DNA of 63,860 nt, filler included. It is 5 parts of 5 records of this genome, joined end to end, with 100 filler letters (N's around TTAATTAATTAA, not from the genome) between each part and the next. Parts side by side here need not be neighbours in the genome. Positions count along the whole stretch, not along the records: positions 21,193 to 49,950 come from SRR31147125_986; 4 more parts are not named here. One strand, written 5' to 3'. The notes under the pieces were generated by a model. That model ran no database searches and had not been told where the DNA came from. It saw nothing but the letters and a program-made list of their open reading frames with translations. Both the position numbers and the translations under genes were made by a program. Each line of letters starts with the position of its first letter. The stretch's first letter is position 1. Of the stretch, positions 33,447-48,062 are shown piece by piece.

Positions 33447-34415
33447 TTAATATCTTGAATTTTTAGTAATTTTTACGGTCTCATGCTCTTTTGATAATAT
33501 ACCAGATACAGGTATGAGCAAGAATGCTAGCCATGAAATATAGAATAAGCCAAAGAAATGACCTAGTGAGAAGAAGATGATGGTTGCGATAAAAGGCATC
33601 ACAGCAACCCATCTAAATTTACCACTGATAATAATTGCAGTCACTGGAATAAGTAATAGTACTTGCCATCCGTATGCCCATCCCTCAAAGTAAAAACCGA
33701 TAAATAAGAATGCAATGACATATAGAAGTGTAAAGAATCCCATGCTAAATGGTTTATCACCAAGGTTAGTAGATACGCTGATATTTCCAGAAGAAATAGA
33801 TACAACGATTGGTAATAAGAATACTAAATAACTAAGGTGACCAAATTCAGTGTATATTTGGAGATATAAATATGCGACGATTGCTGCAATGATTGATAAG
33901 CCAATTAAATAGCTTTTAGCTGATCGTTTAGTCAATGATCCTGAAAGTGGAACAAATAAGAAAACTAGCCATGCAAATTGTCGTTCTATATCAAACTCTA
34001 AGAGTACAAAGAATGCGATGAGTGCTAAAAATGGGGATAAACCAACAATGACATGTCTTGTTCTACCACTGATCACACCAGACATCGGTATAAGTAAGAA
34101 AATAAGCCAAGTAGGATGCCAAGTCTGTGTTGTTAGTCCAATTAACATAAAAGTGAAAACTGCGATGAATGGTGAAAGTGCAACAAATTTATGTTTATTT
34201 CTATTTTTATATACGTAAGTCAGTGTATCTTTTAAATCTTGATAAACATTTTTTGGTTCACCAAGCAAATCACGAATTTCCTTTTCTGACATTGATTTAT
34301 TAACACCTTCATCATATAAAAGTGTATAATCTGATAATATTTCATCGATATCTTTTTCTGATACATGATGATTTTCAAGTATTTCTCTTAATTCATTTAA
34401 ATAATCATTTTTCAT
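33447..34415 (-). CDS. DUF1700-like membrane protein, partner of PadR
   Basis: N-terminal YLNELRE...EILSDY...LGEPK followed by repeated TM hairpins (WLIFLLIP-type). Confidence 0.7.
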   Translation of the reverse strand: MKNDYLNELREILENHHVSEKDIDEILSDYTLLYDEGVNKSMSEKEIRDLLGEPKNVYQDLKDTLTYVYKNRNKHKFVALSPFIAVFTFMLIGLTTQTWHPTWLIFLLIPMSGVISGRTRHVIVGLSPFLALIAFFVLLEFDIERQFAWLVFLFVPLSGSLTKRSAKSYLIGLSIIAAIVAYLYLQIYTEFGHLSYLVFLLPIVVSISSGNISVSTNLGDKPFSMGFFTLLYVIAFLFIGFYFEGWAYGWQVLLLIPVTAIIISGKFRWVAVMPFIATIIFFSLGHFFGLFYISWLAFLLIPVSGILSKEHETVKITKNSRY

Positions 34416-34729
34416 TGTTTAATTCCTCCTAGTATTTTGTTAACCCCTTGTAAAAACGAAAACCATTCATTTTTGTATACTTGATAAACATCTAATCCCA
34501 CATGTGTCATGGTGTAATATTTTCTTGGTGCACCTTGATTGGTTGATTCATAGTATGTATCAAAATATCCTTGAGCAGTGAGTCTCCTAAGAATGGGATA
34601 AACCGTATTTTCATTGACATCAATGGTATCTGATAATGATTCAATGACTTCAAAACCATACATATCTTTTTGATTAATAAGGCTTAAAACACATAATTCA
34701 ACAATACCTTTTTTGAACTGTGTATTCAT
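34412..34729 (-). CDS. PadR-family transcriptional regulator
   Basis: QFKKGIVELCVL, MYGFE, VYPILRRL and RKYY motifs. Confidence 0.92.
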   Translation of the reverse strand: MNTQFKKGIVELCVLSLINQKDMYGFEVIESLSDTIDVNENTVYPILRRLTAQGYFDTYYESTNQGAPRKYYTMTHVGLDVYQVYKNEWFSFLQGVNKILGGIKQ

Positions 34730-34844
34730 GCTTTCCTCCTTTAGTGTGTATCACACAATACTAATATATCACGTTACTGTGTAAAACACAATACCTAAAA
34801 ATACTTTTTTTGCACAAAATTTATATTTATTAAAATGATACGTC

Positions 34845-34873
34845 TTGTCTTTATAAAAACTTTGTGATACTAT
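34845..34873 (+). promoter_or_regulatory. aro operon promoter
   Basis: TTGTCT, 17-nt spacer, TACTAT with an extended -10 TG. Confidence 0.55.
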
Positions 34874-34900
34874 ACTTACAAGCAAGAAAGGTGATTTACT

Positions 34901-34954
34901 ATGCTTAATTTAATGAAGACTGTTTTTTATTACGAATATTACTATCAAAAATAA
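34901..34954 (+). CDS. Tyr/Phe-rich leader peptide MLNLMKTVFYYEYYYQK (17 aa)
   Basis: AAAGGTGA RBS; 5 Tyr and 1 Phe in 7 consecutive codons; directly upstream of a terminator and aroF. Confidence 0.8.
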   Translation: MLNLMKTVFYYEYYYQK

Positions 34955-35024
34955 AGGATTGCAGGGCATTCCTTTTTGAGTCAGTAAAAACGTAAAAGGA
35001 AACAGCCGACCATAATCAATGATT

Positions 35025-35056
35025 ATCCGTGAGGTTGTTCCTCAGGGATTTTTTTA
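35025..35056 (+). terminator. Attenuator terminator in the aro leader
   Basis: ATCCGTGAGG-TTGTT-CCTCAGGGAT followed by a T-run, just before the aroF RBS. Confidence 0.75.
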
Positions 35057-35076
35057 TTTTAAAGGAGAAGAACATA

Positions 35077-36095
35077 ATGATTATCAAAATGAAAAAAGAA
35101 GCATCTAAAAAACAATACAATCATATCGTTGAATTTTTAGAAGCTAAAGGATTAGAAATTAAAGATGTGAGTAGTGAAATGGTTCAAATATTTGGGATTA
35201 TTGGTGACACATCAGGTATAGAACCACTTGATTTAAAAGCTTTTGATGGGGTTGATGAAGTGACACGTGTTTCAACACCATTTAAAAAGCAAGTAGAAGT
35301 TTTCACCCAGAAGATACAATTATCGAATTAAAAAATGGTATTAAAGTTGGTGGAGATGAGTTTTTAATGATGGCAGGACCTTGTTCTGTTGAATCAGAAG
35401 ATCAAATGAGAACTATCGCTAAAGCATTAAAGAAATCAGGGGTTAAAGTGTTACGTGGTGGCGCATATAAACCAAGAACTTCTCCTTATTCATTCCAAGG
35501 TATGGAATTAGAAGGACTGAAAGTCTTAAGGAAAATTGCAGATGAATTTGATATGTTAGTGGTCACTGAATTAATGAGTGTTGATGTATTAGATGAGTTT
35601 GAGAAATATGTTGATATTATTCAAATAGGTGCTAGAAACATGCAAAACTTCTCGTTGTTAAAAGCAATAGGTAAATCAACTAAACCTATTTTATTAAAAA
35701 GAGGGATGTCAGCAACCATTCAAGAATGGCTTATGTCAGCTGAATATGTCATGGCTTATGGTAATGATGATGTGATGCTTTGTGAAAGAGGTATTCGTAC
35801 ATATGAAACATACACAAGAAACACATTAGATATTAGCTCTGTTTTAGCTGTTAAAGAATTATCGCATTTACCAGTCATAGTCGATCCGAGTCATGCCGCA
35901 GGACGTTGGAACATGATTGAAAATTTATCGCTTGCAAGTCTAGCAGTTGGTGCACATGGATTAATTGTTGAAGTGCATCATGATCCTGAGCATGCGATGA
36001 GTGATGGCGCGCAATCTTTAAAACCTAAAAAATATGATGAAATGATTCATAAATTAGATAAAGTTGCAGCTGTGTTAGATAAAAAAATTGTATGA
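35077..36095 (+). CDS. aroF: DAHP synthase type I-beta with N-terminal regulatory domain (1-nt frameshift near 35285)
   Basis: AGPCSVES, GGAYKPRTSPYSFQG, IGARNMQN and DPSH motifs; one extra A in the A-run gives the expected FKKASRSFHPEDT linker. Confidence 0.9.
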
Positions 36096-36922
36096 CATAC
36101 TTTATTGTAGGATTAGGATTGATAGGTGCATCTTATGCGGAAGGATTGCACTTAAAAGGGCATAAGGTATATGCTTATAATAGAAGTGAAGATAAAGTAA
36201 AAAAAGCAATTGAAGAAGGCATCGTTGAAGCAGATAATGATATGAGTAAGATATCAGATGCTGATGTAATTGTTTTATCACTTTATCCTAAACATAATAT
36301 CGAATTTTTAAATAAATATCGAAATTTATTGAAAAAAGGACAAATGATTACTGATGTCAGTGGTACAAAAGTTTGGATGATTGACGAATTGGTTAAACTT
36401 ATACCCGAAGGTATTAGTTATACATCGCATCACCCAATGGCAGGTAAAGAAGTCAGTGGTTATGATGCGAAAGACTATCGTATATTTGAAGGTGCGAATT
36501 TTGTTATCGTACCATCAAATAAATCTTTAGATACTGATGATGCAATTTTAAGAAGCATTGCCAATGATTTATCATTTGGAAAAATACTAAAAGTAGATGC
36601 TAAAACTCATGATCAATTGATTGCTTTCACATCACAACTTACACATGTGATTGCTGTTGCACTTGTGAACACTGATCAATATCAAGAAACAAAAAAAGCA
36701 ACAGGTGATTCATATCGTGATTTAACGAGAATTGCAAAAATCAATGAACATATGTGGACTGAGTTATTTTTAGAAAATAAACCAGCACTTCTAGAAGTTA
36801 TAGATCATTTTCAAAGTCAATTAAATGATATGAAAGTGATGATAGAAAAAAATGAAAAAGAACAATTGAAACAATACATGAGAGATGCGAAAGAAAAGAG
36901 GGTAAGCTTTGATGAAGATTAA
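36092..36922 (+). CDS. tyrA: Prephenate dehydrogenase
   Basis: GLGLIGAS, HPMAGKE, HDQLIAFTSQLTH and RDLTRIA motifs. Confidence 0.92.
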   Translation: MTYFIVGLGLIGASYAEGLHLKGHKVYAYNRSEDKVKKAIEEGIVEADNDMSKISDADVIVLSLYPKHNIEFLNKYRNLLKKGQMITDVSGTKVWMIDELVKLIPEGISYTSHHPMAGKEVSGYDAKDYRIFEGANFVIVPSNKSLDTDDAILRSIANDLSFGKILKVDAKTHDQLIAFTSQLTHVIAVALVNTDQYQETKKATGDSYRDLTRIAKINEHMWTELFLENKPALLEVIDHFQSQLNDMKVMIEKNEKEQLKQYMRDAKEKRVSFDED

Positions 36923-37913
36923 TATGCCAGACTACGATATTATCGTTGGTCATCAAGAAATGAATCATATGACATCACACATTAAAAAAATATACCCTTA
37001 TGAGCATATTTTTATATTAACGGATAATCATGTTTATGGGCTTTATAAAGACAAAATCAATCAATGGTTTAAATCATTTCATACTGAAATTGTTACAGTT
37101 GAGCCAGGTGAAAAATCTAAATCATACGACGTCTATTTAGAAGCAATTGATAAACTTATATCAAAAGGGATAAAACGTAAACATTTACTCATTGCATTAG
37201 GTGGTGGTGTGATTGGTGATCTTGCAGGATTTATCGCATCAACCTTATATCGTGGTATACCATTTATGCAAATCCCTACATCACTACTTGCGATGGTTGA
37301 TAGTTCAATTGGTGGTAAAGTAGGTATTGATTTAGATAGTGGGAAAAATCTAATTGGTTCTTTTTATCAACCTAAAAAGGTTATTATTGATCCTGATTTT
37401 TTAGATACACTATCAGTTGAAGAATATCATAATGGGATGGCAGAAATGATCAAATCAGGTCTTATTGGCGATTCTTCTCTATATACTTTTTTTAAAACAC
37501 ACGATAAAGTAACAATCAATGAAATTATTCAAACTATTGAAGTGAAAAGAAAAGTTGTTTTAATTGATCCTTATGATCACAAGGAGCGCATGTATTTAAA
37601 TTTCGGTCATTCTTATGGTCATGCGATTGAAAAAGCCACGCACTATGAAGTTTATAAACACGGACAAGCGATTAGTTATGGCATGTTAATTGCACTTGAC
37701 AAAGGGATAGCGTTGAAAATAACACCTCAATATTTATATGAGGAAGTAAAAGAAATACTTTTAAAGTTAGACCTTGTGAAAGAACCTTTATTAGAAGCAA
37801 GAGAATTTGAACAAGAACTTATATATGATAAGAAAAATATGGCTGATGGTTATCATTTTATATTTATAGAAGAAATTGGACAGCCAGTCATAATAAAAAT
37901 TAAGTTAGTGTAA
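36909..37913 (+). CDS. aroB: 3-dehydroquinate synthase
   Basis: GGGVIGDLAGF, PTSLLAMVDSSIGGK and LNFGHSYGHAIE motifs. Confidence 0.93.
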   Translation: MMKINMPDYDIIVGHQEMNHMTSHIKKIYPYEHIFILTDNHVYGLYKDKINQWFKSFHTEIVTVEPGEKSKSYDVYLEAIDKLISKGIKRKHLLIALGGGVIGDLAGFIASTLYRGIPFMQIPTSLLAMVDSSIGGKVGIDLDSGKNLIGSFYQPKKVIIDPDFLDTLSVEEYHNGMAEMIKSGLIGDSSLYTFFKTHDKVTINEIIQTIEVKRKVVLIDPYDHKERMYLNFGHSYGHAIEKATHYEVYKHGQAISYGMLIALDKGIALKITPQYLYEEVKEILLKLDLVKEPLLEAREFEQELIYDKKNMADGYHFIFIEEIGQPVIIKIKLV

Positions 37914-37914
37914 T

Positions 37915-39180
37915 ATGATGGATATAATAATAAAACCAAAATCATTAGGTGGTACGATAGAAGTTATTTCATCTAAATCATTATCACATCGTTATGTGAT
38001 AGCTGCTGCTTTATCAAATGAATCATCAACGATTTCAAATGTATTAAAATCACAAGATTTAATAGCAACCAAAGATGCATTAAGTGCACTTGGAGCAACT
38101 TTTGAAGGTGATAAAGTTCAACCAGCAGATTTAGTCCTACGTCATAAAGAAGTGAATATGCATGAATCTGGTTCTACATTAAGATTTATGATACCTATAT
38201 TAATGCTGCAACAACAAGAAGTGATTGTCAAAGGTATGAATCGTTTAGTCGATAGACCTTTAGATGTTTATGATCAATTGTTTAAAGATAAAAAAGTTGT
38301 GTTTGAACATCTTGATGAAAATCATCAATTACCAGTCTTACTCAAAGGTAAAATTAAAGGTGGACATTATCCACTTCGAGGTGATATTAGTTCACAGTTT
38401 ATCAGTGGATTATTATTTGCATTACCACTGACAGGCAAAGACTCTGTTATTGAACTAACATCACCCCTAGAATCCAAAGGATATGTTGATTTAACACTTG
38501 ATGTGTTAAAGAAATTCGGTATTCATATTTTAAATGTAGATCAATATATTTATATTCGTGGTGGTCAAAAATATCAAGCACATGATGCCGTTGTAGAAGG
38601 CGACTTTTCACAATCAGCATTTTGGTTTGCTGCTGGTGTTATTGGGCGTCAACCGCTTAGATTAAAACATTTAAATCCTCAAAGTTTACAAGGTGATAAA
38701 GCGATTGTGGATATATTGAAATCAATGGGGGCTCATATTACCTATAAAGATGATTGTTATGAAGTTTTACCATCTCAAACACAAGGTGTTAAAATAGACT
38801 TATCACAAGTGCCTGATTTAGGACCCATGCTTATGGGGGTTGCAGCACTATCAGAGGGTGTAACAACATTTGTTAATTTTGAAAGATTACGCATTAAAGA
38901 ATCTGATCGCGTTGAAGCGATGAAAGATGTGTTATCAAGATATGGTGTCGATATGCACATCACTGATCAGGTCATTTCGATTGAAGGTAAGAAACAATTA
39001 AAAGGACATATTGAAATAAATACTTTTAATGATCATAGGATTGCAATGGCTGCATCCGTTTTAGCCATTAGAGCTGATGGGGATGTTGTCATTAAAGATA
39101 GTACATGTATTAATAAATCTTATCCTATATTTTATGATGATTATAAAAAATTAGGTGGTGAAATCATTGAAGTTAAATAA
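37915..39180 (+). CDS. aroA: EPSP synthase
   Basis: SKSLSHR, ESGSTLRF, SSQFISGLL, RIKESDR and NDHRIAM motifs. Confidence 0.95.
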   Translation: MMDIIIKPKSLGGTIEVISSKSLSHRYVIAAALSNESSTISNVLKSQDLIATKDALSALGATFEGDKVQPADLVLRHKEVNMHESGSTLRFMIPILMLQQQEVIVKGMNRLVDRPLDVYDQLFKDKKVVFEHLDENHQLPVLLKGKIKGGHYPLRGDISSQFISGLLFALPLTGKDSVIELTSPLESKGYVDLTLDVLKKFGIHILNVDQYIYIRGGQKYQAHDAVVEGDFSQSAFWFAAGVIGRQPLRLKHLNPQSLQGDKAIVDILKSMGAHITYKDDCYEVLPSQTQGVKIDLSQVPDLGPMLMGVAALSEGVTTFVNFERLRIKESDRVEAMKDVLSRYGVDMHITDQVISIEGKKQLKGHIEINTFNDHRIAMAASVLAIRADGDVVIKDSTCINKSYPIFYDDYKKLGGEIIEVK

Positions 39181-39427
39181 TCTTAGAAAAGAAATTAATC
39201 AAATTGATACACAAATATTAGAATTATTTGAAAAAAGAATGCATGTTGCATCACAAATTGGTGCATATAAAAAAGTTCATGATTTACCAGTGTTAGATCA
39301 ATCAAGAGAAGATGCATTACTTAGCATGATGCTAGAAAAAGTAAATGATCCTGATTTAAAACCTTATTATGAGAAATTCTTAAAACATTTAATGGATCTT
39401 TCTAAGGCTTATCAACATGAAGTATAA
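39155..39427 (+). CDS. Chorismate mutase (AroQ-type)
   Basis: LRKEINQID...KR...IGAYK...PVLDQSRE pattern. Confidence 0.85.
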   Translation: MVKSLKLNNLRKEINQIDTQILELFEKRMHVASQIGAYKKVHDLPVLDQSREDALLSMMLEKVNDPDLKPYYEKFLKHLMDLSKAYQHEV

Positions 39428-40187
39428 ATGTGGATTGATTGGTCATAAAATCTCTTATAGCCTATCACCTGTGATTCATGAACAAATTGCGAAATTTTTA
39501 GATGTTAAGATGACTTATGATTTGATTGATATCTCAAGTGATCGCATATCAGACTATATAGATTTATTAAAAAAGGGCATCTATCAAGGCTTTAATGTTA
39601 CAAAACCGTATAAAGAAGAAGTTATCGCATATATGGATGAATTATCTCCAATTGCAAAAAAATTAAGAGCAGTTAATACCATTTATATGTTGGATGGCAA
39701 AATTTATGGTGATAACACAGATGCTTATGGGTTTGCTTATATGTTAGATTATTATCACATAAAAGTTGATCGTAAACATGTGTTAGTTTTAGGAACTGGT
39801 GGAGCATCAAAAGCCGTCTTTGATGTGCTTCAAAAAAGAGGTGCACATATTAAATTTGCATCAAGAACACCAAAAGGTGAACATGTCATCGGATATAAAG
39901 ATATATATCCAAGTGTATTTGATATATATATCAATGCTACACCGATAGGTACATATCCTCATGTTGAAGATTGTGTGTTATCACAAAATGAAGTGAGTCA
40001 ACAATTGGTTATTGATTTAATATATCGACCTAAACATACAAAATTGATGCAATACGCACAAACATCTTATAATGGATTTATGATGCTTTTAGCCCAAGCT
40101 GTTAAAAGTGAAATGTTATGGTTGAATCATGATATATCAATCCATGATACGATAGATTATTTAATGGAAGTGATCAAATATGAATAG
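39417..40187 (+). CDS. aroE: Shikimate dehydrogenase
   Basis: SLSPVIH, NVTKPYK, AVNT, NTDAYGF, GTGGAS and NATPIG motifs. Confidence 0.92.
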   Translation: MKYKCGLIGHKISYSLSPVIHEQIAKFLDVKMTYDLIDISSDRISDYIDLLKKGIYQGFNVTKPYKEEVIAYMDELSPIAKKLRAVNTIYMLDGKIYGDNTDAYGFAYMLDYYHIKVDRKHVLVLGTGGASKAVFDVLQKRGAHIKFASRTPKGEHVIGYKDIYPSVFDIYINATPIGTYPHVEDCVLSQNEVSQQLVIDLIYRPKHTKLMQYAQTSYNGFMMLLAQAVKSEMLWLNHDISIHDTIDYLMEVIKYE

Positions 40188-41166
40188 TTATGGACAATTA
40201 TTTAGAATAACTTTATATGGTGAATCTCATCAAAAAGCTATAGGTGTCATCATTGATGGTGTAACACCAGGCACACCTATTGATATAGATTTAATTAAGC
40301 ATGATTTAGAACTTAGAAAGCCTAAAGCCATTGGTACGACACCAAGAAAAGAAGATGATGAACCTATGATTACATCGGGTGTATTTAATGGTGTTGCTAC
40401 AGGATCACCCATACACATCATGATTGAAAACAAAAATATTAAATCAAAAGACTATGATCATCTGAAAAAACAACCAAGGCCAGGACATGCTGATTTTGTT
40501 GCAGAACGAAAATATCATGGGTTTCAAGATCATAGAGGTGGTGGACGCTTTTCTGGAAGACTTACAGCAGCATTAGTTGCTGCAGGGTCTATTGCAAAAA
40601 TGATGATTCCTTATACATTTAGTCATGAACTAAAACAAATTGGTGAATTAACGGATATGACAAAAATTGATGCATATCTTACTAAAATCATTGCTGAAGG
40701 TGATTCAGTCGGTGGTATTGTCGAAGTAAATATTAAAGGTGTTGAAGTAGGTTTAGGTGAACCTATGTTTGAAAAACTTGATGCAGAACTTGCAAAAATG
40801 ATGTTTAATATACCAGCGGTAAAAGGATTTGAAATGGGGATTGGTTTTAAAGGTGCTCATTACAAAGGTTCAATGTTTAATGATCTTATGATTGATGGAA
40901 CAGGTAAAACTAAAACGAATCATGCTGGTGGTGTCACAGGGGGTATATCAAATGGAAATGACATTGTATGCCGAGTATTTGTAAAACCAACATCATCCAT
41001 TCAAAAAAATCAAGAAACATATCATTTAGAAAGTCAACAATTAGAAACACTTAAAGTTGGCGGTAGACATGATGTTGCTATCGTAAGAAGAGTAGGCATT
41101 GTTTTAGAAAATGCAGCTGCAATTGTTTTAGCCGATGCTTATTTAAAAAATAAAATTTATCAATAA
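40180..41166 (+). CDS. aroC: Chorismate synthase
   Basis: GESHQ, PRPGHAD, RGGGRFSGR, GGISNG, KPTSSI and GRHD motifs. Confidence 0.95.
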   Translation: MNSYGQLFRITLYGESHQKAIGVIIDGVTPGTPIDIDLIKHDLELRKPKAIGTTPRKEDDEPMITSGVFNGVATGSPIHIMIENKNIKSKDYDHLKKQPRPGHADFVAERKYHGFQDHRGGGRFSGRLTAALVAAGSIAKMMIPYTFSHELKQIGELTDMTKIDAYLTKIIAEGDSVGGIVEVNIKGVEVGLGEPMFEKLDAELAKMMFNIPAVKGFEMGIGFKGAHYKGSMFNDLMIDGTGKTKTNHAGGVTGGISNGNDIVCRVFVKPTSSIQKNQETYHLESQQLETLKVGGRHDVAIVRRVGIVLENAAAIVLADAYLKNKIYQ

Positions 41167-41338: not shown

Positions 41339-41848
41339 ATGAATAAAAATGTTGAAATGACACAGGATCAATTAGATTTTTTTTATGCTAAAATTGACCA
41401 ACATTTAAAAAAACCTGGGCCACTCATGCCAACACTGCATGACGCACAGGAAATTTTTGGTTGCATTCCTCTCAAAATTCAAAAAATAATTAGTCAAAAG
41501 CTTCATATGAGTATTGCTAAAATTAATGGCGTTGTTACTTTCTATGGCAATTTTTCAGTAGAACCTAAAGGAAAACACCAAATTCATGTATGTTTAGGAA
41601 CCGCATGCTATGTTAGAGGTTCTAAGAATATTATGGAAACTCTAGAAAATCATTTTCATATTAAAGAAGGGCAGACAACTGCAGATGGTGAAGTATCTAT
41701 TTGTGCGACTAGATGTATTGGTGCATGTGGGTTAGCCCCAGTTTTTTCTGTTGATGGCCATATTTATGGTTCAGCAGATGTTGCCAAAACAAATAAAGTG
41801 ATCCATGATTTAGAGGATGAAGAACATGACACTGCATGCATTGATTAA
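41339..41848 (+). CDS. Hydrogenase 2Fe-2S subunit (NuoE / HndA / HydC-like)
   Basis: GVVTFY, VCLGTACYVRG and RCIGACGLAP motifs. Confidence 0.9.
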   Translation: MNKNVEMTQDQLDFFYAKIDQHLKKPGPLMPTLHDAQEIFGCIPLKIQKIISQKLHMSIAKINGVVTFYGNFSVEPKGKHQIHVCLGTACYVRGSKNIMETLENHFHIKEGQTTADGEVSICATRCIGACGLAPVFSVDGHIYGSADVAKTNKVIHDLEDEEHDTACID

Positions 41849-42206
41849 TCAATTTAAACTTAATCAACTCACTAAACAACCGATACATCAAAAAGAAATC
41901 AGTTATGGATTTTGTTGTGATTTGATGAGTGATGCGCTAATGATTATGCATCAGACAAGTGATGAAATCATTGATCAAACCATTTTAATTACAGGGTTAG
42001 TAACGATGCAATCGATACGTACAGCGGAGATGCTAGATATCGATGTTGTTGTCATAGTCAGGGGGAAAATACCTTCAATAAAAGTGATTGAATTAGCAGA
42101 AAGGCTTAATATTTTAATACTTCAAACTTCATTAACGATGTTTAGTTTAAGCGGTCAATTATTTCAAAAAGGGATTGAAGGTATCTCTTATGAAGAACAA
42201 TGGTAA
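41817..42206 (+). CDS. DRTGG-domain protein
   Basis: CCDLMSDAL, ITGL, RTAEMLD and VRGK motifs. Confidence 0.8.
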   Translation: MKNMTLHALINQFKLNQLTKQPIHQKEISYGFCCDLMSDALMIMHQTSDEIIDQTILITGLVTMQSIRTAEMLDIDVVVIVRGKIPSIKVIELAERLNILILQTSLTMFSLSGQLFQKGIEGISYEEQW

Positions 42207-42640
42207 GTAAACAATATCAGATTATCGCTAGAAATTATGATTTAGCAGGACGTGCTTCATCTGCTGTTAAGCAAGCATTAAAATCGATTCATCTTTCTAG
42301 ACAAGAAATTAAACGTATTTGTTCAGCATCATACGAAGCTGAGATTAATGTAGTTATACATTCAATGGGTGGTTATGTTGATGTCTTTATTGAAAATGAT
42401 TACATCCAATTAAACTTTTACGATGATGGTCCAGGCATTGAAGACATTGAAAAAGCAATGGTGGAAGGTTATTCAACAGCTACACCAGAAGATCATCGAA
42501 ATGGATTTGGAGCTGGATTGGGGTTGTCTAATATTAAAAGATGTGCTGATAAGATGGAACTAGCATCTTCGAGTGAAGGCACAATTTTGAAACTAACTTT
42601 CAATTTTAGAGGTGAAGTATGCACGACATTAGAGAAATAA
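42200..42640 (+). CDS. Anti-sigma / RsbT-like Ser/Thr kinase (HATPase_c)
   Basis: YEAEINVVIH, DDGPGI, GYST and GFGAGLGLSNIK motifs. Confidence 0.85.
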   Translation: MVSKQYQIIARNYDLAGRASSAVKQALKSIHLSRQEIKRICSASYEAEINVVIHSMGGYVDVFIENDYIQLNFYDDGPGIEDIEKAMVEGYSTATPEDHRNGFGAGLGLSNIKRCADKMELASSSEGTILKLTFNFRGEVCTTLEK

Positions 42641-42972
42641 TTAAAGATCCAAGATACCGAAGTGTTTCAAATGAAGATTCACTTCAACATAGATTTAGAT
42701 GTGTTTATGCGTGTGATTTGTTAAGCGCAGTCATTAAGCATGGTATTGATGCACCAATACTCATTACACAAATTAATGCCATTGCTACGCTTGGAGTTGC
42801 TGTGATGATGGATTTACCCGCTATCATAATGACTGAAGGAAAAAAGTTTAATCAAGAAATGATTGAGAAAGCAAATGAAGAAAGCATATGTTTGATTGAA
42901 ACAAATATGACTTCAACGGATGTTATTATCGATTTGAAACAAAAAAATTATTATGAAAAAATATTATTATGA
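42619..42972 (+). CDS. DRTGG-domain protein
   Basis: YACDLLSAV, ILIT and AIIMTEG motifs. Confidence 0.75.
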   Translation: MHDIREIIKDPRYRSVSNEDSLQHRFRCVYACDLLSAVIKHGIDAPILITQINAIATLGVAVMMDLPAIIMTEGKKFNQEMIEKANEESICLIETNMTSTDVIIDLKQKNYYEKILL

Positions 42973-44161
42973 TCTCCATATTCATAGTGTATTATCACCG
43001 TGTGCTGATGAATTGATGACGCCTCAAAATATATTTAACATGGCCATGCTTAAGCATTTAGATATCATTTCAGTTACAGATCATAATAGTTTAAAACAAA
43101 TACCAGTATGCTATGAGCTCTCAAAAAGTTATGATCTGTTGTTTATACCTGGTGTAGAAGTAACCGTTTCTGAAGGTTTTGATATTTTGATATATTTCAA
43201 ACATATGAAAGACACATTACCATTTGATGCATTTCTGTCATCTAGAGTGAAGCATATTCCAAATAATAACCAATATTTAAAACAACAAGAAATCTATGAT
43301 ATAAATGATCATGTTTGTGATATTTACCCTTATTTACTTAATCAGAAACTTGAGATTTCAATGGATGAGCTCATCAAAGCATTGAAATCGTATGAATGCA
43401 TGTATGTATTTGCACATATTGATAGATATTTTGATGAGATACTACCCTACATCTCTAAATATAAACCACATGGTATTGAAACAAGAAAAGCTCTGCATTT
43501 ATTCGATGCAAAACATATGATTAATTCAGATGCGCATCATATTATAGATATTTTAGAAAGAGATAAAAATCATATCACCTTAGATACTTGCACCCTAGAT
43601 GATTTTTTAGGTATTTTTTGCATGGATGATTTTTCATCATATATCTTTGATCTCGTACAAAATGCATTTGCAGCACGTGCAAATCGTATAACCATAAAAA
43701 TCATAAAAAATGATCAATTAAAACTTGTACTTAAAAATAATGGTAAGCATATGCCAAAAACTATAATTAGACAAGTGGTATCTCCTTTTTATACAACAAG
43801 AACAACCAGGAGAATTGGATTAGGCATACCCTTAATGATTTTATTGACACAACAAACACAAGGTACATATCATATACGCTCAAATCAAGTCTTTAACACA
43901 ACATTTATATTTACTTTTAATCATCAACATGTAGACTTTCCTGATGAAGGCGACTATACGAAACTGGTTCGTGATATTTTTATGCATCAAGATTTATCTG
44001 TCTTAAAATTTAGATATAAAGATAAACATATAAAGAAAACACTTAAATTTAAAAAGAGTAAACATCAACTAAGTACAGTCATCAGCGAAATGAATCAACA
44101 CATGAAAAGAATAGAGGATAACGATGAAAACTTTAGAAGATTTAAAAAAATTACGCGATGA
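42953..44161 (+). CDS. PHP-domain phosphoesterase apparently fused to a HATPase_c protein (second domain starts at ATG 43622)
   Basis: DLHIHS, TDHN, PGVE and NSDAH, then DLVQNA...PFYTTRTTRRIGLGIPL. Confidence 0.75.
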   Translation: MKKYYYDLHIHSVLSPCADELMTPQNIFNMAMLKHLDIISVTDHNSLKQIPVCYELSKSYDLLFIPGVEVTVSEGFDILIYFKHMKDTLPFDAFLSSRVKHIPNNNQYLKQQEIYDINDHVCDIYPYLLNQKLEISMDELIKALKSYECMYVFAHIDRYFDEILPYISKYKPHGIETRKALHLFDAKHMINSDAHHIIDILERDKNHITLDTCTLDDFLGIFCMDDFSSYIFDLVQNAFAARANRITIKIIKNDQLKLVLKNNGKHMPKTIIRQVVSPFYTTRTTRRIGLGIPLMILLTQQTQGTYHIRSNQVFNTTFIFTFNHQHVDFPDEGDYTKLVRDIFMHQDLSVLKFRYKDKHIKKTLKFKKSKHQLSTVISEMNQHMKRIEDNDENFRRFKKITR

Positions 44162-44501
44162 ATCACTAAAAAAAATGAATATGCGTTATGTCAAAGATGG
44201 GTTTAGAATCCAAGTGGGGATGGGAACATGTGGCATCGCGTCTGGTGCCAGAACTATATTAAATGAATTTTTACAACAAATCGAAAATCATGAACTTAAA
44301 AATGTGTCAGTCACACAAGTTGGTTGCATGGGAGAATGTGCATACGAACCAATGATAGAACTCATTGACGCATCAAGGCAATCTTATATTTATGCGCAAC
44401 TCACCATTCCAATGGTTCGAGCAATCGTTGAAAAGCATATCATTAACCATCATCCTATAGATAAATGGTTGTTATCAACAAGAAAGAAAGAGGAAAACTG
44501 A
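44124..44501 (+). CDS. Thioredoxin-like 2Fe-2S ferredoxin subunit (HndB / HydD-like)
   Basis: VGMGTCGIASGA and VGCMGECAYEP motifs. Confidence 0.88.
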   Translation: MKTLEDLKKLRDESLKKMNMRYVKDGFRIQVGMGTCGIASGARTILNEFLQQIENHELKNVSVTQVGCMGECAYEPMIELIDASRQSYIYAQLTIPMVRAIVEKHIINHHPIDKWLLSTRKKEEN

Positions 44502-46315
44502 TGTTAGAAAGACTACAATTACTAATCTGTGGTGGCACGGGTTGCATGAGTTCACACTCAAAAGAACTAAAAACTGCATTTGAAAAAAAATTAAAAGCGA
44601 TGGATTTATTTCAAGAAGTAAATATTGTACTCACAGGCTGTTTTGGATTATGCGAAAGAGGACCGGTTGTTATTGTTTATCCAGATGAAACATTTTATGC
44701 TCATGTTAAAGTTGAAGATATTGATGAAATATGTGAAGAGCATATTTTAAAAGGAAGAACAATTAAACGTTTGCTTGTGAAAAATCCTGATGATCGAAAA
44801 AAAATAGCTCAAATGAGTGATTTGAAATTTTATGCTAAGCAAAAAAGAATTGCACTTAGAAATTGTGGAAATATCAATCCACTAGATATTAAAGAATATA
44901 TAGCAAAAGATGGATACTTTGCATTAGGAAATATTTTAAAACACAAGTCACCTGATGAAGTCATTGATGAAATGATTGCATCAGGACTTAGAGGTCGTGG
45001 TGGTGGTGGATTTCCAACAGGATTAAAATGGCAATTTTCAAAACGTGCAACGACACCTCAAAAGTTTGTAATTTGTAATGCTGATGAAGGTGATCCGGGT
45101 GCTTTTATGGATCGCGCTATATTAGAAGGTGATCCACATTCTATATTAGAAGCGATGGCTATATGTGGATATGCAATTGGGTCAAACCAAGGCTATATCT
45201 ATGTTAGAGCTGAATATCCAGTAGCTGTTGAAAGGCTTAATCATGCTATTAAAGAAGCAAATGCATATGGTTTACTAGGAAAAAACATATTCGATTCTAA
45301 TTTTAGTTTTCAAATCGAACTTAGACTTGGTGCTGGTGCATTTGTCTGCGGAGAAGAAACGGCTTTAATTAAGTCGATTGAAGGCTTTAGAGGGATGCCT
45401 AAACTTAAACCTCCTTTTCCTGCAATTAAAGGTTTATGGGATCAATCAAGTAATGTAAACAATGTTGAAACACTCGCAAATGTTCCTGTTATATTTTTAA
45501 AAGGGGCTTCTTGGTTTAAATCAATTGGAACTAAAGATTCACCAGGAACAAAAGTATTTGCGCTTGGTGGAAAGATTAATAATACTGGTTTAGTTGAAGT
45601 GCCGATGGGAACAACTCTTCGAGAAGTTATCTATGATATCGGTGGAGGCATTCCGAATAAAAGAAAATTTAAAGCGGTACAAACGGGTGGACCATCTGGC
45701 GGGTGTATTACAGAAAAAGATCTAGATACACCTATAGAATTTGAAACATTAAAAGCATTAGGATCTATGATGGGATCTGGTGGTATGATTATCATGGATG
45801 AAGATAATTGTATGGTGGATGTTGCAAGATTTTATCTTGATTTTACTGTTGATGAGTCATGTGGAAAGTGTACCCCTTGTCGAGAAGGTACAAAGCAAAT
45901 GTTAGAGATATTGAATCGTATTTGTGATGGTAATGGTACACATAAAGATATTGATGAACTTCAAAGTCTTGGAGAAATGATTCAAAAAACATCATTATGT
46001 GGTCTTGGACAAACTGCACCAAATCCGGTGTTATCAACTCTAAAACATTTTAGAGAAGAATATGAAGCACATGTTAATGAACATGCATGTCCTGCAGGAG
46101 TATGTGCAAATCTTACTAACTTTGTAATTAATGACAATTGTATAGGGTGTACGAAATGTGCAAGAAACTGTCCAGTCAATGCTATTTCTGGTCTACCTAA
46201 ACAATTACATGTGATTGATTTAGATTTATGTATTAAATGTGGAGCATGTAAAAAAGCATGTCCAGTAGGTGCCATTTCAAGTGAACCTAATCAAAGAGGT
46301 ATAGCATATGAATAA
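44501..46315 (+). CDS. NAD(H)/FMN-binding hydrogenase subunit (NuoF / HndC / HydB-like)
   Basis: GLRGRGGGGFPTG, NADEGDPGAFMD, FVCGEETAL, ESCGKCTPCREG and two C-terminal 4Fe-4S motifs. Confidence 0.93.
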   Translation: MLERLQLLICGGTGCMSSHSKELKTAFEKKLKAMDLFQEVNIVLTGCFGLCERGPVVIVYPDETFYAHVKVEDIDEICEEHILKGRTIKRLLVKNPDDRKKIAQMSDLKFYAKQKRIALRNCGNINPLDIKEYIAKDGYFALGNILKHKSPDEVIDEMIASGLRGRGGGGFPTGLKWQFSKRATTPQKFVICNADEGDPGAFMDRAILEGDPHSILEAMAICGYAIGSNQGYIYVRAEYPVAVERLNHAIKEANAYGLLGKNIFDSNFSFQIELRLGAGAFVCGEETALIKSIEGFRGMPKLKPPFPAIKGLWDQSSNVNNVETLANVPVIFLKGASWFKSIGTKDSPGTKVFALGGKINNTGLVEVPMGTTLREVIYDIGGGIPNKRKFKAVQTGGPSGGCITEKDLDTPIEFETLKALGSMMGSGGMIIMDEDNCMVDVARFYLDFTVDESCGKCTPCREGTKQMLEILNRICDGNGTHKDIDELQSLGEMIQKTSLCGLGQTAPNPVLSTLKHFREEYEAHVNEHACPAGVCANLTNFVINDNCIGCTKCARNCPVNAISGLPKQLHVIDLDLCIKCGACKKACPVGAISSEPNQRGIAYE

Positions 46316-48062
46316 AGTAAACATACAAATTAATGACCAACACATAGAAGCCGATGCTTCTCAAACAATCTTAGAAGTTGCACAAGCACATAAAATATAT
46401 ATTCCAAGATTATGTTATTTAAAAGATTTACATGAAGAAGGAAATTGTCGCATATGTTCTATTAAGGTAGAAGGACAACAAAATCTAAAACCAGCATGTA
46501 AAACAAAAGTTGAAGAAGGCATGCGTATTATTACAAATGACCAAGATGTCTATGATTATGTTTCAATGAATTTAGAACTCTTAGCAAAAAGACATCATTT
46601 TGAATGTTTTAAATGTTCAAGAGAAGATAATTGTGAATTTTTAGATTTACTTAGAAGATATTCAGTGGATAATGAGTTTTCACATATGTATGGATTTAAT
46701 CCAGAAGATTATTATTACACGGATTCATCAGGTGTTATTGTTGTTGATAGTAGCAAATGTGTATTGTGCGGAAGATGTGTATCTGCATGTGAAAAACAAT
46801 CAGGTTTAGGTATTATTGATTTTAATGAAAGAGGTGCTAATACATATATAGGTGCAGCACAATTTCATCCTTTAGAAGATGCTGGGTGTATTTATTGTGG
46901 TAAATGTATTCAAGCATGTCCTACAGGTGCATTACGTGAAAAAGATGATATCAAGCAAGTGGAAAGAGCACTACGTGATCGTTCTAAAAAAGTGGTCGTA
47001 CAAGTTGCCCCTTCAGTAAGAGCAGCACTTGGAGAATCATTTGGTTATCCAATTGGGACGAATGTAGAAGGACAAATGTTCACAGCGCTAAAAGCTATGG
47101 GATTCGATGAAATCATGGACACGAATTTTACAGCTGACTTAACCATTATGGAAGAAGGGCATGAATTCTTAAATAGATTGAATCATGGTGGGAAATTACC
47201 ATTATTTACATCTTGTTCTCCAGGATGGGTAAATTATTTAGAATTATACTATCCTGAGATGATTGATCATGTATCTTCATGTAAATCACCACAACAAATG
47301 GCTGGTGCTTTAATTAAAACTTATTATGCAGAAAAAATGAATCTAGATCCTCATGGTATTGTATCAGTATCAATTATGCCATGTATTGCTAAAAAAGCAG
47401 AAGCAAGACGTGATGATATGGGGCGTGATGGTTATCGTGATGTTGATTATGTACTCACCACACGTGAACTTGCAAGAATGATTAAAAGACATGATCTTGA
47501 TTTAAACACATTAGAACCGTCTAAACCTTATGGACAACTCGCAACTTATACCGGGGCGGGTGCGATTTTTGGTGCGACAGGTGGCGTGATGGAAGCAGCA
47601 CTTCGTACAGTATCTGAAATTTTAGAAGAAAAAACAACACCAATTGATTTTAAAATGGTACGTGGAAATACAGATATTAAAGAAGCTACGCTAGATATTA
47701 AAGGTATGAAAATTAATGTTGCTGTCGTACATGGGGGTGTTGCGATTAAAAGATTTTTAGAATCACTTAAAACAACACAAAAAACTTATCATTTTGTAGA
47801 ATTTATGGGATGTAGTGGTGGTTGTATTAATGGTGGAGGGCAACCGATTGTTCCTGCTAAAATATTAGATCAAACAGATGTAAGAAAACTTAGAGCATCA
47901 GTGCTCTATGATATTGATCGTAATAATGAGATTAGAAAATCTCATGAAAATCCATTTGTTCAAAAACTATATCAAGAATTTTTAGAAAAACCAAGTAGTC
48001 ATAAAGCGCATGAACTCCTTCATACGCACTACAAAAAGAGAAGTCCTTATGAAAACATATAA
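46308..48062 (+). CDS. [FeFe]-hydrogenase catalytic subunit, group A (HndD / HydA-like)
   Basis: H-cluster motifs TSCSPGW, MPCIAKKAE and EFMGCSGGCINGGGQP; N-terminal Fe-S domains. Confidence 0.95.
   Translation: MNKVNIQINDQHIEADASQTILEVAQAHKIYIPRLCYLKDLHEEGNCRICSIKVEGQQNLKPACKTKVEEGMRIITNDQDVYDYVSMNLELLAKRHHFECFKCSREDNCEFLDLLRRYSVDNEFSHMYGFNPEDYYYTDSSGVIVVDSSKCVLCGRCVSACEKQSGLGIIDFNERGANTYIGAAQFHPLEDAGCIYCGKCIQACPTGALREKDDIKQVERALRDRSKKVVVQVAPSVRAALGESFGYPIGTNVEGQMFTALKAMGFDEIMDTNFTADLTIMEEGHEFLNRLNHGGKLPLFTSCSPGWVNYLELYYPEMIDHVSSCKSPQQMAGALIKTYYAEKMNLDPHGIVSVSIMPCIAKKAEARRDDMGRDGYRDVDYVLTTRELARMIKRHDLDLNTLEPSKPYGQLATYTGAGAIFGATGGVMEAALRTVSEILEEKTTPIDFKMVRGNTDIKEATLDIKGMKINVAVVHGGVAIKRFLESLKTTQKTYHFVEFMGCSGGCINGGGQPIVPAKILDQTDVRKLRASVLYDIDRNNEIRKSHENPFVQKLYQEFLEKPSSHKAHELLHTHYKKRSPYENI

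Follow-up and report, generated by a model that had tools for sequence, protein, structure and literature searches.

In the window, the 63,860-nucleotide stretch of joined DNA records (filler included) that was analysed here, the operon aroF-tyrA-aroB-aroA-CM-aroE-aroC is preceded by a short leader ORF rich in Tyr codons and by an intrinsic terminator. The sequence elements of a classical attenuator are all present, namely the leader ORF, tandem codons for a product of the operon, the terminator and an antiterminator exclusive with it. Judged from sequence comparison and modelled folding, the region probably acts as a classical ribosome-mediated transcription attenuator that would read the supply of charged tRNA-Tyr and control the entire operon. 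A broader proposal is advanced as a tentative possibility: that a Tyr-only classical attenuator is combined with a five-segment relay (0:C, A:B, B:C, C:D and the terminator) and with a pause built into A:B and its U-run by which the ribosome could keep up, and that it forms the Trp-free, Tyr-specialised end of a widespread class of aromatic aroF leaders, still without a name, in which codon content follows the branch pathways kept.

Re-reading of the sequence placed the promoter, RBS, 17-codon leader, segments A, B, C and D and the terminator where a preliminary description, made from the letters alone, had located them (Table 1). The A:B pairing was present as described and proved longer than stated; segment A had been given as 34953-58, and the full helix joins 34953-62 with 34966-75. 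The terminator was likewise retained with a refined span, 35025-35049, and with D at its apex. Transcription would start near 34880, judging from the promoter. The promoter scored 8 of 12 by consensus and was absent from the consensus-scan listing; the pattern TGnTAnnnT was found 15-50 nt 5' of the leader start in all 81 unique leaders assembled below, against 5% of shuffles. The terminator scan returned one terminator-like site, at 35030-44, where 0.2 were expected, and the U-tract ends 21 nt 5' of the aroF start. Folding of 34880-35080 gave a z-score of -2.66, with equal stability in 3 of 200 shuffles. Between 34835 and 35095 no difference was listed relative to the contigs of three DNA runs, one of which is possibly the source of the window DNA while the other two represent other strains. 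The U-run in segment B, a possible polymerase pause site, measured 5 nt in 68, 4 nt in 11 and 3 nt in 2 of the 81 leaders, and the run of 4-5 U after A:B, found in 79 of 81, is at most a candidate pause.

Table 1. Features of the leader region and aro operon in the window (all on the + strand).
Feature	Position	Details	Basis
Promoter, sigma-70-type	34845..34873	-35 at 34845-50, 17-nt spacer, TG-extended -10 at 34865-73	Sequence
Shine-Dalgarno of leader ORF	34888..34895		Alignment A1 (59 leaders), with conservation of 90% or more in both G columns
Leader ORF	34901..34954	17 codons; five of codons 10-15 (34928-34945) are Tyr, preceded by Phe9	Translation; homologues in family loci
Segment 0	34920..34934	Leader codons 7-11; putative protector helix with C if ribosome-free	MFE, recoding control, swap test
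Segment A	34953..34962	Over and just past the stop codon; partner B	Folding
Segment B	34965..34977	Contains 5-U run; partners A or C; 34969-76 in the preliminary description	Folding, alignment
Segment C	34991..35007	Partners 0, B or D; predicted antiterminator arm; 34994-35007 in the preliminary description	Folding, swap test
Segment D	35033..35042	Terminator apex and loop; predicted target of C	Folding
Intrinsic terminator	35025..35055	Hairpin 35025-35049 and U-tract	Terminator scan
aroF, DAHP synthase	35077..36095	RBS 35061-67	NCBIfam PRK08673, above cut-off
tyrA-like, prephenate dehydrogenase family	36092..36922		PRK08507, E 5e-48, under curated cut-off
aroB, aroA, chorismate mutase, aroE, aroC	36909..41166	Overlapping gene run	Profile matches; aroE slightly below cut-off

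The closest named records to the window are an Acholeplasmataceae and a Mariniplasma genome. In the family Acholeplasmataceae, which includes Acholeplasma, an aroF match was obtained in 123 of 172 genomes. From these, 90 aroF loci were taken, of which 87 had a start and enough upstream DNA (L211 and L241 were excluded for too little upstream DNA and L248 for lack of a start); the 33 matching genomes outside the sample mostly had aroF at 42-53% identity or truncated. As the preliminary description would require, leader and Tyr run were conserved upstream of related aroF genes: a short Tyr-run ORF was present 140-195 nt 5' of aroF in 82 of the 87 family loci, the window being additional. These 82 and the window form the set of 83 leaders used here, 81 of them unique, and all 83 are followed by a hairpin and U-tract terminator. 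Loci L238, L245, L246, L249 and L250 were without the leader, a call in L238 having proved false and been counted as a miss. L238 belongs to a close relative in which the upstream padR-like gene and the promoter are kept and other hairpins replace the Tyr leader, possibly through leader loss or replacement. In the rest of the order the leader was found in 6 of 20 sampled loci, which brings the order-level set to 89, and the other 14 retain aroF-tyrA without it (L265-L274 and L276-L279; in several of these aroF lies directly behind another gene).

It had been suggested in the preliminary description that such a leader may be undescribed. For the element itself this is not supported, as a uORF that lies before Acholeplasma aroF and carries a promoter, an RBS, a start codon and a terminator is already reported (Brewer et al. 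2021, PMC8632094). In the available part of that account the motif, uORFC-13-1, has 24 representatives from Acholeplasma and environmental DNA, occurs only before aroF, comprises -35 and -10 elements, an RBS, a start codon and a second helix, has an intrinsic terminator next to it, and is proposed to act by attenuation; it is read as Phe-sensing on account of a U-run coding for at least one Phe. Like it, the window element lies upstream of aroF and has a promoter, an RBS and a start codon as well as a second helix and a terminator, and judged by this description it is almost certainly uORFC-13-1. The same part of the account names no Tyr run and no antiterminator and gives no test of the motif, whereas 89 Tyr-dominated leaders and five pairing segments are described here. 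No uORFC-13-1 entry was found in the one supplement of Brewer et al. examined, and their supplementary alignments may show the Tyr run. The mechanism itself is textbook and the element already published as a candidate; what is new is computational, namely the proposed Tyr assignment, the modelled five-segment relay and the wider range. No other description of a Tyr leader attenuator was found in the literature searched, which was mostly without subscription papers. The comparative attenuator surveys of Vitreschak 2004 and Lopatovskaya 2010 may already list Tyr leaders.

The codon content of the leaders indicates which amino acid is likely to be read. In the last ten codons of the 81 unique leaders Tyr accounted for 42.6% of residues against 8.0% expected from base content, while Phe accounted for 4.8% against 9.2% expected. 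The triplet YYY was present in 71 of 81, and Tyr outnumbered Phe in 81 of 83. Trp occurred once among 1143 leader residues, a count that includes the false call L238, and TrpA scored above cut-off in 1 of 172 family genomes. The leader is most likely Tyr-sensing on this evidence. That the same attenuator instead takes Phe, alone or with Tyr, as its effective signal, as Brewer et al. (2021) read uORFC-13-1, appears unlikely. Their cited U-run is consistent with such a signal, Phe stands at codon 2 in 31 of 83 leaders and, in 30 of 81 with the window among them, within the last ten codons, and either Phe at codon 2 or Phe inside the run could explain the published reading. Moreover, in the window a ribosome stalled at Phe9 gives the antiterminator fold just as one stalled at Tyr10 does. 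The operon also feeds Phe synthesis, and pheA is present in 54 of 172 family genomes, not linked to aroF; in the 6 of these 54 pheA loci inspected by eye no pheA leader was evident. Tyr codons in themselves need not mean Tyr sensing, since the aroR-aroF leader of Corynebacterium glutamicum, with the control codons Phe-Tyr-Phe, is responsive to Phe but ignores Tyr (Neshat et al. 2014, in the summary given by PMC11802643). Against a Phe signal, control-region Phe lies below chance and Tyr five times above it, 30 of 83 leaders are free of Phe (it is present in the other 53, including the window with Phe9), and 47 of 83 have none after codon 2. Phe can on codon content be ruled out as the general signal, while a secondary Phe input in some leaders, that of the window included, is possible.

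Tyr-sensing through charged tRNA was also weighed against a translated leader that senses some other cue, be it the decoding speed of Tyr codons through tRNA modification, general translation stress or arrest by the nascent peptide. Runs of Tyr codons in E. coli are sensitive to tRNA-Tyr modification (in the part of PMC13602947 available), Tyr in the leaders is encoded by 253 TAT against 109 TAC codons, and some leaders of actinobacteria, although they carry candidate control codons, turned out not to be attenuators of the classical kind, as stated in excerpts of PMC1262725. Such a cue nevertheless seems highly improbable: outside the Tyr run the peptide is variable, unlike an arrest peptide, and the operon makes Tyr, has tyrA always second and carries a leader whose content matches that of the pathway.

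To a switch made of RNA only, or one bound by a protein, whose TAT/TAC run would be retained for base pairing with the ORF as a by-product, we give even less credence. Pairing between the Tyr run and C is indeed predicted in RNA free of ribosomes. Synonymous variation does not by itself settle the frame either, because a T/C change at the third position of a Tyr codon is silent in the Leu frame too. Arguing for translation, the Shine-Dalgarno, start codon and in-frame stop are kept, the distance from start to run changes by whole codons, and the two alternative frames, with any start codon allowed, stay open in no more than 21 and 8 of the 81 leaders. Nor was a known RNA class, T-box included, matched in Rfam: the 12 matches obtained for the window at E up to 10 all scored far short of the gathering thresholds, and the leaders of 7 relatives gave none. 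A T-box riboswitch was rejected on the absence of both an RF00230 match and the T-box bulge motif.

Folding of the window RNA with a simulated ribosome gave three states. In the untranslated RNA 34920-34 paired with C, A:B was nested within this helix and the terminator folded. With the ribosome stalled at codon 9 or 10, A:B and C:D formed, and with the ribosome at the stop codon B:C formed together with the first pairs of the terminator. The proposed attenuator would work accordingly in three ways. If no ribosome is present, segment 0 would hold C and the terminator would fold. If Tyr is short, the ribosome would stall in the Tyr run and cover 0 while leaving A:B intact, and the free C could then capture the emerging terminator apex D, resulting in read-through. 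If Tyr is plentiful, the ribosome at the stop would melt A, B would take C and the terminator would fold; this state is predicted to run via the A/B relay because C lies about 40 nt past the stop, out of the ribosome's reach. We infer that the leader is translated, that stalling occurs and is timed as required, that the polymerase pauses at A:B and its U-run, and what the ligand is. The preliminary description had already paired a ribosome at the stop with B:C and the terminator, and a Tyr stall with A:B and C:D. This part was supported by conservation and folding; the scheme was incomplete in omitting the 0:C helix. By that scheme an untranslated leader would read through, whereas with the 0:C helix it would terminate.

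The balance between antiterminator and terminator was calculated for all 83 leaders with the ribosome modelled by two footprints, and the paired figures that follow refer to these. With the ribosome at the stop instead of at the first Tyr codon, the terminator gained a median of 3.8 or 5.0 kcal/mol, the shift exceeding 1 kcal in 68 or 80 leaders and running in the opposite direction in 4 or 0. The untranslated RNA differed from the first-Tyr stall by a median of 6.0 or 5.7 toward the terminator, a shift likewise above 1 kcal in 77 or 82 leaders. These shifts follow a second definition of the antiterminator: in a first energy run stop and stall came out alike (median -0.46 and 0.03), C:D there often having taken in B paired with the 3' strand of the terminator, and D was then restricted to the apex. 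Controls were run on 41 of the 81 unique leaders, every second one. Shuffling of A and B reduced the stop-versus-stall shift from 5.1 to -0.07. Shuffling or synonymous recoding of the ORF lowered the untranslated-versus-stall shift, recoding from 5.7 to 1.8, so the residues before the Tyr run (AV, AG, SV, TV) appear to be kept for RNA pairing.

Pairing of C with D was found in 81 of 81 unique leaders and is exclusive with the terminator. In a swap test on 15 representatives of the 89 leaders, native partners paired better than swapped ones for 0:C (-6.4 versus -4.3) and for C:D (-11.3 versus -7.7), both at p<0.0001 in a permutation that ignores relatedness and with C mis-anchored in two of the 15. 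A:B (p=0.008) and B:C (p=0.019) were weaker, B:C being the best partner in 0 of 15 rows, and three control pairs gave p 0.47-0.90. The covariation looked for was weak by alignment column, where 1 of 18 pairs in the main subgroup changes on both sides (score 0.101 versus 0.096 shuffled, 21 of 500 shuffles as high), and this is slight because the helices of the main subgroup are nearly invariant. In divergent subgroups C and D are rewritten together.

Stability by itself would not set the modelled outcome. In an equilibrium test on shortened transcripts stall and stop were separated in only 26-30 of 83 leaders. In the full-length stalled state the terminator was usually still favoured, by a median of +1.2 to +1.3 kcal and by up to +11, and the stalled MFE of the window before D emerges contained B:C, not A:B, the two energies being close. 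As the finished terminator stays most stable under stalling and A:B and B:C are nearly equal, the modelled switch would have to rest on the order of folding, with A:B forming first and C:D forming before the 3' arm of the terminator emerges.

Downstream of the leader the gene order aroF-tyrA-aroB-aroA-CM-aroE-aroC agrees with the aro operon of the preliminary description, and the tyrA-like gene lies immediately 3' of aroF in every one of the 79 leader loci where enough DNA was available. Among the scanned ORFs of the operon (35077-41166) neither a shikimate kinase nor a dehydroquinase was found. In one RNA run reads covered only 35759-36010, within aroF and not the leader. By comparison with L001 the window aroF lies in two frames. 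The contigs of all three DNA runs have one extra A behind 35283, in an A-run, so the frameshift is a one-base assembly error, and a genuine aroF pseudogene was rejected for the same reason. Relative to these contigs the window carries single-base deletions in homopolymer runs at both 35283 and 34804, and further apparent frameshifts or fusions in it may be assembly errors as well. In L082 (G168:C1, near 561278) aroF is also frameshifted shortly after the same junction, by an extra base, which is probably another such error. Divergent from the aro promoter, at 33447-34729 on the minus strand, lie a PadR-family regulator and a membrane protein, an arrangement kept in L001, and the intergenic stretch near 34745-34795 shows conservation both in L001 and in L002. 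The gene run at 41339-48062, judged by motifs in its translations, appears to resemble a multi-subunit NAD-linked [FeFe] hydrogenase and also includes small genes of kinase-like and PHP-like type; the ORF at 42953-44161 within it may be two fused genes.

In terms of the segment logic of E. coli trpL and pheL, segments 0, C and D of the window take the roles of segments 1, 2 and 3, and in architecture the multi-segment his attenuator probably comes closer. The window shares with trpL and pheL, as summarised in PMC11802643, the tandem control codons, the antiterminator and the terminator, along with a protector helix and the predicted termination of an untranslated leader. Unlike in those leaders, the antiterminator arm of the window lies past the reach of the terminating ribosome, would be captured via the nested A:B / B:C relay, and pairs with the apex and loop of the terminator. 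The aroR leader of C. glutamicum, compared by its description in PMC11802643 only, is likewise a leader-peptide attenuator before a DAHP synthase gene and differs in codon content and phylum. Classical leaders in Bacillota-related lineages are not unprecedented, since His leader-peptide attenuators with His codons before the his operon have been predicted in the Bacillus cereus group, Eubacteriales and Erysipelotrichales, in 17 genomes (PMC9413887, in the part available).

Among 130 distant aroF loci, 103 have a leader with at least 6 aromatic residues in twelve, against 14 of 650 shuffles. These leaders are mixed, 95 of the 103 containing Phe, Tyr and Trp, and their peptides are longer than those of Acholeplasmataceae. 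Together with terminators they were observed in L003-L080 and L112-L190, which comprise Syntrophales, Smithella, Clostridium and Tissierella records and metagenome contigs. A T-box motif was present in none of the 103 and in 8 other distant loci. The mixed leaders fall into two RNA types, both unlike the Acholeplasmataceae leader RNA, and a profile search gave no RNA homology with the clostridial and Syntrophales leaders (no match below E 0.3 in those loci). TrpA was found in 2 of 5 outgroup genomes with Trp-less leaders and in 5 of 5 with Trp, the genomes being few and partly incomplete. In L017 the clostridial leader lies about 300 nt 5' of aroF and has an early stop, without the Trp codon of its relatives, and in L014, L015, L020, L021 and L026 two tandem terminator-like hairpins follow the clostridial leader. 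The Acholeplasmatales leader is best seen as a Trp-free, Tyr-weighted version of a common device.

For a candidate motif already in print, the analysis changes the likely ligand from Phe to Tyr and supplies a full proposed switch with named base pairs. Regulation by Tyr is usually ascribed to T-boxes or repressors (PMC1262725, PMC5343134, in the parts available), and no tested example of Tyr-only attenuator specificity was found in the literature searched. A leader with a Tyr run would close a gap in the range of attenuators, the one tested Tyr-codon aroF leader found being one that ignores Tyr, and it has potential use as a compact sensor of Tyr-tRNA. RNA polymerase outruns the ribosome in Bacillus subtilis, while an expressome has been observed in Mycoplasma pneumoniae (PMC9226507, as excerpted). 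The leader would offer a natural probe of transcription-translation coupling in Acholeplasmatales.
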